In this document: piece by piece, positions 11,098 through 51,830 of the stretch
Position numbering within the stretch: position 1 is the first letter of the stretch
Layout: every line of letters begins with the position of its first letter
Assembly (NCBI GenBank): GCA_050942825.1
Contig: JBMNOA010000002.1
Span: 4,993 to 68,992 of the forward strand
From: Bacillota bacterium
GTDB taxonomy: Bacteria > Bacillota > Dehalobacteriia > UBA4068
DNA length: 64,000 nt
Direction: 5' to 3'
Program-made: the position numbers and the translations under genes
Notes under the pieces: model-generated
What the model saw: only the letters and a program-made list of their open reading frames with translations
Databases searched by the model: none
What the model was told of the DNA's origin: nothing

Positions 11098-11209
11098 ATA
11101 TATAAATTGGACTGCGATGAAGCGGGAGGTTGCCACTTATGAGGACATAGTGGGTTTTTCCGTGGAGAATGTCCGTAAAATATGCGGGCGAAAAGGAGGT
11201 AAGTAAATA

Positions 11210-16408: not shown

Positions 16409-16777
16409 GTGATTCAAGCCGAAACCAGACTAAAAGTTGGGGATAATACAGGCGCTAAAGAACTGCTTTGTATTAAAGTATTGGGCGGCTCCCGCCGTAA
16501 ATATGCCACAGTTGGCGATATAATCGTTTGTGCCGTTAAAGAAGCCTCTCCGGGTGGCGTTGTAAAAAAAGGGGATGTAGTTAGAGCTGTTGTAGTGCGT
16601 ACCAAAAAAGAAATCCGTCGTCCTGATGGTTCCTATATTCGCTTTGACGAAAATTCCGGAGTTATCATTAATGATGCCGGACAACCGAGAGGTACCCGTA
16701 TATTCGGGCCGGTAGCCAGAGAATTGAGAGATAAAGACTTTATGAAAATCATCTCACTTGCTCCGGAAGTACTCTAA
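16409..16777 (+). CDS. rplN: 50S ribosomal protein L14
   Basis: GTG start; [18 protein letters not shown]. Confidence 0.96.
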
Positions 16778-16792
16778 GTCGGAGGTGAAGAA

Positions 16793-17137
16793 ATGGCAAG
16801 GGAAATATTAAAAGCAAAAAAAATGCATATAAAAAAAGGTGATACAGTGGTTGTTATCTCGGGAAAAGATGCCGGTAAAAAAGGTAAAGTTATCGCGGCT
16901 GAACCTAAAAAAAATCGTGTGTATGTTGAAAAAGTCAATCTGGTCAGCCGTCATACCAAACCTACCAAAGCTTCGCCGCAAGGTGGTATTATTAAAAAAG
17001 AAGCCGGTATTGATGTTTCTAATGTGATGATCTTTTGTTCCCATTGCAACAAACCTGTTCGCATTGGCAATGAAATAGCCCAAGATGGTTCAAAACAACG
17101 TAAATGCAGTAAATGTGGATCAGTATTTGATAAATAA
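16793..17137 (+). CDS. rplX: 50S ribosomal protein L24, with a 10-aa N-terminal extension and a C-terminal CxxC-x16-CxxC signature
   Basis: KOW motif [23 protein letters not shown]; strong GGAGGTG RBS at the ATG 16793; Cys codons at 17036-17116. Confidence 0.93.
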
Positions 17138-17157: not shown

Positions 17158-17700
17158 ATGGCAAGGCTAAAAGATAAATATTTAAGTGAAATCCGCCCGC
17201 AACTTCAAGAGAAATTTTCCTATAAAAATATTATGGAAATTCCAAAATTGGAAAAAGTTGTGATTAATATGGGGATGGGCGAAGCTATCCAAAACCCTAA
17301 AGCTTTGGATGCCGCTGTAGGAGATTTGACTATTATTTCCGGACAAAAACCTATTATCACCAAGGCCAAAAAGTCCATTGCTGCTTTTAAATTACGTCAA
17401 GGTATGTCTATCGGTTGCAAAGTAACTTTAAGAGGCAACAGAATGTATGAATTCGTTGACAAGCTAATCTCAGCAGCAATCCCTCGGGTACGTGACTTTA
17501 AAGGCGTATCTACCAAAGCCTTTGATGGCCGCGGTAATTACACTTTAGGACTTAAAGAACAATTAATCTTCCCGGAAATTGAGTATGATAAAATAGATAA
17601 ACTCCGGGGGTTGGAAGTGAACTTTGTTACTTCTGCCAAAAGCGACGAAGAATGCCGTGAGCTGTTGGGTTTAATGGGCATGCCCTTCGCCGAAAGATAG
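17158..17700 (+). CDS. rplE: 50S ribosomal protein L5
   Basis: 180 aa. Confidence 0.96.
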
Positions 17701-17729: not shown

Positions 17730-17915
17730 GTGGCTAAAACTTCTATGTTAGTGAAGCAAAAACGCACACCCAAATTTAGGGTTAGAGGATATAATCGCTG
17801 CAGTATTTGCGGTAGGCCCCATGCTTATATGCGCAAATTCGGTATTTGCCGTATTTGTTTCCGTGAGCTGGCCTATAAAGGAGAAATCCCCGGTGTTACC
17901 AAATCTAGTTGGTAA
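17730..17915 (+). CDS. rpsN: 30S ribosomal protein S14, zinc-binding type Z
   Basis: 61 aa; [20 protein letters not shown] (Cys4). Confidence 0.96.
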
Positions 17916-21786: not shown

Positions 21787-22455
<669 letters not shown>

Positions 22456-22574
22456 TAATCATGCAAATATAAAACAATCTCAAGTCATAACCTTGGATAA
22501 TAGCGTTGACAGGTTGTTTGTGGATAGGCATAGCTTTTGCAATCAATATTAAATTCATATCTATAGGTGGACCA

Positions 22575-22901
22575 ATGAAAATAGAGAATGAAAAACTTAA
22601 TAATTTTGATTGTAAATGGGAGATAAATAATAAGCTGTCATTATGTCCTGGACAATTAGTCAGGTCTAAACAAGGCAGAGATCAGGGGGAATTTTATCTG
22701 GTTTATGCCATAACAAACGATTGTCTTTGGTTGGTGGATGGCCGCAAAAGAAGGGTCGAAAACCCCAAAAAGAAAAATCGTCGTCATTTGCAACATATCA
22801 ATAAGGTAGCGGCTGACTTTGCTGATATGTTAGCAAAGGGTCAACCCGTCACAAACGAAGATGTCAGAAGAGCTATGTCCAACCTCTTAGATGAGCAGTA
22901 A
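22575..22901 (+). CDS. KOW-domain RNA-binding protein (YbzG-like), occupying the adk-infA slot where map is often found
   Basis: ATG at 22575 after an AGGTGG RBS; GQLVRSKQGRDQGEFYLV KOW-like core; basic tail. Confidence 0.6.
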   Translation: MKIENEKLNNFDCKWEINNKLSLCPGQLVRSKQGRDQGEFYLVYAITNDCLWLVDGRKRRVENPKKKNRRHLQHINKVAADFADMLAKGQPVTNEDVRRAMSNLLDEQ

Positions 22902-23217: not shown

Positions 23218-23331
23218 ATGAAAGTCAGAGCTTCTGTTAAACCCATCTGTGAAAAATGTAAAATTATTAAAAGACGTGGTAAAGTAATGGTTATTTGCCG
23301 TAATACCAAGCATAAACAAACCCAAGGCTAA
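23218..23331 (+). CDS. rpmJ: 50S ribosomal protein L36 (Zn-ribbon form)
   Basis: Hand-translated 37 aa [37 protein letters not shown]; AAGGAGG RBS; missed by the >=60-aa ORF track. Confidence 0.93.
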
Positions 23332-24166: not shown

Positions 24167-24793
24167 ATGGCTAGATATAAAGGCGCTGTTTGCCGCCTCT
24201 GCCGTCGTGAAGGTATGAAACTCTACCTTAAAGGTGACCGTTGCTATTCCGATAAATGCGCCGTAACTACTAAAGCGTATGCCCCGGGAGAGCATGGTCA
24301 ATCTAGAAAGAAAGTTTCCGAGTATGGCATACAGTTGAGAGAAAAACAAAAAGTACGCCGTATCTATGGCGTATTGGAAAAACAATTCCGTAATTATTTC
24401 CGTAAAGCCGAGAAGCAAAGAGGCGTTACCGGTGAGAATCTCTTGAGATTATTGGAGAGCCGTTTGGATAATGTAGTTTATCGTCTGGGCTTTGCTTCCT
24501 CCAGAGTTGATGCTCGCCAATTAGTCCGACACGGACATTTTACCGTCAATGGTAAAAAAGTAAATATCCCTTCCTATTTAGTTAAAATGGGAGATGTGAT
24601 ATCTGTCAAAGAAAAAAGCAGAACCTCTCCAAAAATCGAAGCCATTGCTGCTGCTCTTACCTCGCGTACGGCTCCGGCCTGGTTGGAAGTGGATAAAGAA
24701 AACTTGGTAGGTAAAGTAATTGCATTACCCACAAGAGAAGATATAGATCTGCCAATCGATGAGCAATTGATAATAGAACTTTATTCCCGTTAA
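24167..24793 (+). CDS. rpsD: 30S ribosomal protein S4 (Zn-finger form)
   Basis: CRLCRREG...CYSDKC; 208 aa. Confidence 0.96.
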
Positions 24794-49619: not shown

Positions 49620-49694
49620 GGGCCTATAGCTCAGCGGTAGAGCCACCGGCTCATAACCGGTCGGTCCCTGGTTCGATCCCAGGTGGGCCCACCA
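49620..49694 (+). tRNA. tRNA with anticodon CAT (elongator tRNA-Met or lysidine-modified tRNA-Ile2; not an initiator), CCA-encoded
   Basis: Cloverleaf folded by hand: 7-bp acceptor GGGCCTA/TGGGCCC, D-arm GCTCAGCGGTAGAGC, anticodon stem ACCGG/CCGGT with loop CTCATAA, T-arm CCTGGTTCGATCCCAGG, then ACCA; G1-C72 is paired and the anticodon stem lacks GGG/CCC, so it is not tRNA-fMet. Confidence 0.9.
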
Positions 49695-51466: not shown

Positions 51467-51830
51467 TTATCCGAGTAAGACGAATGAACGCAGGCAGAGT
51501 GCCGAAAGGCCCTGTCTGAGGAAAGTCCGGGCTCCATAGGGCAAAGTGCTGGCTAACGGCCAGTGAGGGCGACCTTAAGGATAGTGCCACAGAAATGCAA
51601 ACCGCCTCCGCTTTTATTGGGGGTAAGGATGGAACGGTGCGGTAAGAGCGCACCAGCAATCAGGTGACTGATTGGCTAGGTAAACCCCACTTGGAGCAAG
51701 ACCGAAAAGGAAAATATCAGGGCTGCCCGTCCTTTTTTCTGGGTTAGGTTGCTAAAGACTTCTGGCAACAGATGTCGTAGATAGATGTTCATTTATTACA
51801 GAACTCGGCTTACAGACTTGCTCGGATCAG
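51467..51830 (+). ncRNA. rnpB: RNase P RNA, bacterial type A
   Basis: Universally conserved GGAAAGTCCGGGCTCCATAGGGCA, GGTGCGGTAAGAGCGCACC and GGTAAACCCCACTTGGAGCAAG blocks; P1 helix CCGAGTAAG (51471-51479) pairs with CTTGCTCGG (51817-51825); the ends are approximate (+/-10 nt). Confidence 0.9.

Follow-up and report, generated by a model that had tools for sequence, protein, structure and literature searches.

An ordinary C+ form of ribosomal protein uL24 in a Bacillota genome, with a CxxC-x19-CxxC site corresponding to that of Thermus thermophilus

Introduction

Ribosomal protein uL24 is an assembly initiator that acts early in the formation of the 50S subunit, and its binding site on 23S rRNA lies near the polypeptide exit. 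The uL24 encoded in a 64-kb stretch of DNA from a Bacillota metagenome-assembled genome (the whole stretch analysed, called the window below) carries two pairs of Cys residues in its C-terminal part. The question raised by this locus is whether these residues form a zinc site of a new kind, as an earlier note on the same DNA had implied from a list of ribosomal proteins with Cys-containing (C+) and Cys-lacking (C-) isoforms. That list corresponds to the one of Makarova, Ponomarev and Koonin (2001), which reportedly does not include uL24, and it is outdated.

A survey covering 2,021 bacteria and 24,312 of their ribosomal protein sequences extended the C+/C- scheme to uL24 and uS4 (Nucleic Acids Res 2023, PMC10450194). 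There, uL24 was counted as one of the ribosomal proteins that bind Zn in Thermus, T. thermophilus uL24 being stated to coordinate zinc, and its C+ and C- isoforms were defined by a (CXXC)-(CXXC) pattern; Figure 2 of that paper was built on PDB 4Y4Y, and the uL24 consensus with boxed metal ligands is given in its Supplementary Figure S1. The 2022 preprint of the same work agrees on Zn-binding uL24 and on its C+/C- isoforms. The C+ frequency was found to climb with optimal growth temperature, the uL24 metal site being invariant at growth temperatures of at least 80 °C and variable below (PMC10450194). This paper and the Thermus structures in the PDB precede any claim of novelty made for the site, and the uL24 of the window is an ordinary, already known C+ form: it falls within a published class, and its zinc site is not a new one.

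Results

The rplX gene and its four cysteines

The protein was assigned to uL24 by Pfam PF17136 (86.9 bits, cut-off 27) and NCBIfam TIGR01079 rplX_bact (113.8 bits, cut-off 53.7). Its gene is preceded by rplN, encoding uL14, and followed by rplE, encoding uL5, and then by the uS14 and uS8 genes, which is the canonical spc-operon order (Table 1). Taken as a whole, the window is an ordinary ribosomal region (rpoB-rpoC-str-S10-spc-alpha) from a Bacillota genome of the Clostridia type, with a GC content of 41.7%, and the S10-Clostridia ribosomal protein leader found in it fits such an origin. A Shine-Dalgarno-like GGAGGTG precedes the upstream ATG at a distance of 5 nt and supports this ATG as the start, which makes the N-terminus 10 residues longer than that of B. 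subtilis uL24. An N-terminal extension of this kind is common to many homologues of 113 to 114 aa.

Table 1. Coordinates of the uL24 gene, its metal-site region and other features of the window
Feature	Position (nt)	Strand	Remarks
S10-Clostridia ribosomal protein leader	11109..11191	+	Rfam RF03136, 59.1 bits vs 35.1; just 5' of rpsJ
rplN, uL14	16409..16777		before rplX
Shine-Dalgarno-like GGAGGTG	16781..16787	+	sequence reading; 5 nt 5' of ATG at 16793
rplX, ribosomal protein uL24, C+ isoform	16793..17137	+	114 aa + stop; ORF and family profiles
KOW motif of uL24, residues 15-46	16835..16930	+	Pfam PF00467, 40.9 bits (cut-off 22.3), E = 1.5e-10
Knuckle 1, Cys82-Ser-His-Cys85	17036..17047	+	matched to CPAC in T. 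thermophilus uL24; after model strand E78-82
Knuckle 2, Cys105-Ser-Lys-Cys108	17105..17116	+	matched to CAKC in T. thermophilus uL24; after model strand E101-105
rplE, uL5	17158..17700		after rplX
uS14, short C+ form	17730..17915	+	61 aa; CxxC-x12-CxxC, Cys24, 27, 40, 43
Adenylate kinase, Cys4 lid	21796..22455	+	CxxC-x16-CxxC, Cys132, 135, 152, 155; PF05191 ADK_lid, 67.5 bits
ORF between adk and infA	22506..22901	+	probable start ATG 22575; about 108-131 aa
bL36, C+ form	23218..23331	+	CxxC...C...H, Cys11, Cys14, Cys27, His32
uS4, Cys form	24167..24793	+	CxxC-x13-CxxxxC, Cys9, 12, 26, 31
tRNA-Met (CAT), single	49620..49694	+
Class A bacterial RNase P RNA	51472..51828	+	303.5 bits

The only Cys residues of the protein are Cys82, Cys85, Cys105 and Cys108, encoded within nt 17036..17116 and arranged as CSHC-x19-CSKC, that is, CxxC-x19-CxxC. 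This arrangement fits the (CXXC)-(CXXC) pattern by which C+ uL24 has been defined (PMC10450194). The earlier note had placed a zinc-ribbon signature at 17029..17120, a range within which all four Cys codons do fall; the C-terminal, zinc-ribbon-like Cys4 signature that it described was borne out, but the spacer of 16 residues was a miscount for 19. Its B. subtilis uL24 sequence was correct; the alignment, described as matching residue for residue, requires one single-residue gap. When uL24 was compared with the generic zinc-ribbon Pfam models Zn_ribbon_4, Zn_Ribbon_1, Zn_ribbon_3 and DZR, scores of 17-19 bits were obtained, below the cut-offs of 25-30. Judged by its sequence, the site is one that would work like a zinc ribbon from outside the zinc-ribbon Pfam families, as a variant inside the uL24 family.

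The site corresponds to that of Thermus uL24

The uL24 of T. thermophilus has the identical CxxC-x19-CxxC spacing, and in a gapless HMMER alignment of 29 residues all four Cys are in register. The two proteins share about 46-47% sequence identity; they differ in that the window uL24 has the longer N-terminal extension, and their hosts are a Bacillota metagenome-assembled genome and a Deinococcota thermophile, respectively. A PDB search with the C-terminal 43 residues of uL24 made Thermus sequences alone stand out (E about 2e-5), whereas no C+ uL24 from outside Thermus was found with this query, the other uL24 chains scoring like C- forms. The Thermus uL24 sequence variants are jointly present in roughly 300 PDB entries (e.g. 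4v8a chain AY, 10px chain 1Y).

An AlphaFold2 model of the window uL24, for which 58 homologues were used, had a mean pLDDT of 88 and a pTM of 0.71, with no segment below 50. In this model, strands E78-82 and E101-105 each run directly into a CxxC, as zinc knuckles do. The top 50 Foldseek hits against the PDB were uL24 chains only, from bacterial, chloroplast or mitochondrial ribosomes, and the top query-normalised TM belonged to the Thermus chain 4v8a_AY (TM 0.89/0.95, rmsd 1.2 Å, 107 columns). From the 1.2 Å superposition of the model on Thermus uL24, and from the position of each CxxC just after a strand, we infer that the four Cys sulfurs would converge.

The best whole-sequence PDB matches (E about 6e-29) were instead the C- uL24 proteins of Bacilli, from B. 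subtilis (3j3v_U), Listeria (8a57_X) and S. aureus (4wce_R). These have the same fold as the window model (TM 0.83-0.86, rmsd 1.0-1.3 Å) and hairpins of equal length except for one residue, but the Cys positions are occupied by residues of the Asp/Thr/Ala/Ser type (...LDPKTGE...VAKKSGQ...), so that a metal site is impossible there.

These comparisons are consistent with the following explanation. The C-terminal part of uL24 would consist of two beta-hairpins, each followed by a CxxC knuckle, and a single Zn2+ would be held between both knuckles in tetrahedral geometry, as in the T. thermophilus protein. This ion would act as a structural cross-brace by which the small C-terminal domain keeps its shape on the 50S subunit, and the C- uL24 of B. 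subtilis, Listeria, Staphylococcus and E. coli would build the same backbone without metal. Very probably, then, the window encodes a standard metal-binding C+ uL24 in which Cys82/85 and Cys105/108 bind one Zn2+ as in T. thermophilus, as a structural brace.

The four cysteines are kept or lost together

We collected the best 120 uL24 matches from a collection of 5.8 billion proteins, and CxxC...CxxC was present in 106 of them. For a second sample, species-representative genomes, one for each species, were scanned with an N-terminal peptide lying outside the Cys region as seed. Among the 80 most similar loci obtained in this way, 74 carried the strict motif, in taxa spanning Clostridia, Negativicutes, Desulfuromonas and Adlercreutzia; a CxxC...CxxxxC variant was found in two (L051 and L080, from Ruminococcus / Clostridiales MAGs), and uL24 was Cys-free in four (two Dialister, one contig labelled Fusicatenibacter and one Peptostreptococcaceae MAG). 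The second knuckle of the two variant loci reads CKNAECG or CKNADCG, a two-residue insertion in the knuckle.

Both samples were then placed in one joint alignment of 200 uL24 sequences, and the four Cys columns were read. The pattern was CCCC in 184 sequences, Cys was absent in 10, and CDCC occurred in five; what remained was one GCCC singleton and one CCAA sequence, apparently frameshifted, so intermediates are rare. This all-or-none pattern is the one to be expected of four residues that behave as one unit, or site. It also resembles the C+/C- isoform classes of ribosomal proteins in general, in which a Cys4 site is either wholly kept or wholly replaced: here, 184 CCCC sequences stand against 10 Cys-free ones.

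The five CDCC sequences are uL24 proteins of Caloranaerobacter (P0088-P0091 and P0094), in which the first pair is Cys-x2-Asp and the second CxxC is intact. A CCCD form has been described for bL33 (PMC10450194), and the Caloranaerobacter arrangement may be a comparable Cys3-Asp metal site or, alternatively, a site in decay.

A further search, in which the N-terminal 78 residues (Cys-free) were compared with 50%-identity representatives, gave 10 C+ in 88 among the best 150, a count unusable as a frequency: these best 150 representatives were mostly fragments or frameshifted gene calls, 62 being truncated, and many of the apparent C- sequences were visibly frameshifted C+ ones.

Separately, some C+ homologues were seen to carry long C-terminal tails rich in Lys, Ala, Thr and Glu (for example ...KPVKAEKPAKTEEKVEKTTKTAPKK...) that extend 40-60 residues past the zinc ribbon; examples are P0108 (173 aa), P0120 (149 aa) and L074 (165 aa).

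The C+ state as a lineage trait

The side claims of the earlier note about other metal-site proteins in the window were correct: uS14, bL36 and uS4 are all Cys forms, and the adenylate kinase lid is of the Cys4 type (Table 1). It had read these features, together with uL24, as the mark of a zinc-replete lifestyle. One could accordingly propose that C+ uL24 is a specific adaptation of the source organism, to a zinc-replete niche or to high temperature (a "molecular thermometer"), and not a matter of inheritance. That all four metal-site ribosomal proteins of the window are Cys forms and that the adenylate kinase has a Cys4 lid would agree with this proposal. However, most of the relatives found, many mesophiles included, have C+ uL24. 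The C+ relatives comprise the mesophiles Sporomusa ovata, Selenomonas artemidis, Phascolarctobacterium, Flavonifractor, Intestinimonas and Heliobacterium chlorum, together with Desulfuromonas and Adlercreutzia. Since C+ is the majority state among relatives, its presence in the window reflects ancestry and says nothing specific about zinc supply, and the zinc-replete reading is not supported. As for temperature, the published rise of C+ frequency with growth temperature and the invariance of the uL24 site at 80 °C and above would favour an adaptation, but C+ uL24 is uninformative below 80 °C because the site is variable there (PMC10450194). Taking both sides together, we consider an adaptation specific to the source organism very unlikely.

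Comparison with a second metal-site protein agreed with inheritance being the main factor. In 74 of the 78 scorable loci, uL24 and uS14 were both C+. Three loci of the Dialister type (L032, L037 and L038) had a uL24 without Cys and a degenerate uS14 site with one Cys per half, and in the Peptostreptococcaceae MAG (L072) only the uL24 Cys were lost, uS14 still being C+. The C+ state is mostly a lineage trait, and we infer that the uL24 Cys site of the window was inherited from a clostridial ancestor and is no adaptation to zinc supply. One of the three Dialister-type loci, L038, carries the label Fusicatenibacter saccharivorans but shares an identical uL24 C-terminus and an identical uS14 with the Dialister locus L037, which suggests that L038 is a mis-binned contig.

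C- copies of bL31, bL33, bL36, uS14 and bS18 often coexist with their C+ counterparts as Zur-regulated paralogues. In contrast to these pairs, the window holds a single uL24: by tblastn, no second copy, Cys-free or otherwise, was found within the 64 kb, where rplX matched only itself. A literature search for a Zur-regulated paralogue of uL24 likewise gave nothing relevant.

The nature of the metal

The relatives of the window uL24 that we found are mostly anaerobes. This would suit another reading, in which the Cys4 site binds iron, as a rubredoxin-like Fe(Cys)4 centre, or senses redox state or zinc, instead of serving passively as a structural zinc site. A precedent exists in T. thermophilus uS4, whose Cys site was long taken as a zinc site and is reported to hold an iron-sulfur cluster (PMC10450194), and uL24 itself gave a weak match to the rubredoxin-type model PknG_rubred. 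This match, at 15.5 bits, lies under the cut-off of 28.5 and is no better than the matches to zinc-ribbon models, and CxxC-x19-CxxC on two hairpins is classic zinc-ribbon geometry. Moreover, zinc and not iron was assigned to uL24 in the published work (PMC10450194), and nothing in the present data points to a regulatory function. An iron-binding or sensing site is, on this evidence, very unlikely. The fuller proposal, that in anaerobic Bacillota a rubredoxin-like iron or redox-sensitive uL24 site would make early steps of 50S assembly responsive to metal or redox status, is very unlikely too. The metal held by the uL24 site of the source organism is presumably zinc rather than another.

Finally, the idea that the four Cys are chance substitutions with no joint function, which might appeal to the fact that C- uL24 works well in many bacteria, has virtually nothing left to it: an orthologue survey, suggested in the earlier note, found the Cys kept in 184 of 200 relatives, so that they are not the product of drift, and the all-or-none pattern and the identity of the Cys positions with those of Thermus across phyla refute it as well.

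Other observations in the window

Between adk and infA, where the methionine aminopeptidase gene map usually sits, the window has no map gene. An ORF is found there for which no Pfam or NCBIfam family match was obtained. To the eye, its stretch GQLVRSKQGRDQGEFYLV looks KOW-like, and we presume that the ORF resembles the small uncharacterised proteins encoded at the same spot in other Bacillota, e.g. YbzG of B. subtilis. The RNA features of the window are listed in Table 1.

Discussion

The source organism contributes one data point to the published scheme in which ribosomal metal sites indicate growth temperature, a scheme within which uL24 alone is uninformative below about 80 °C. The analysis removes a false lead: bacterial ribosomal proteins currently listed as having C+ and C- forms already include uL24, and the bacterial ribosome crystal structures in widest use contain its C+ form. 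In practice, the result serves the annotation of the source genome, in which uL24, uS14, bL36 and uS4 can be recorded as C+ forms.
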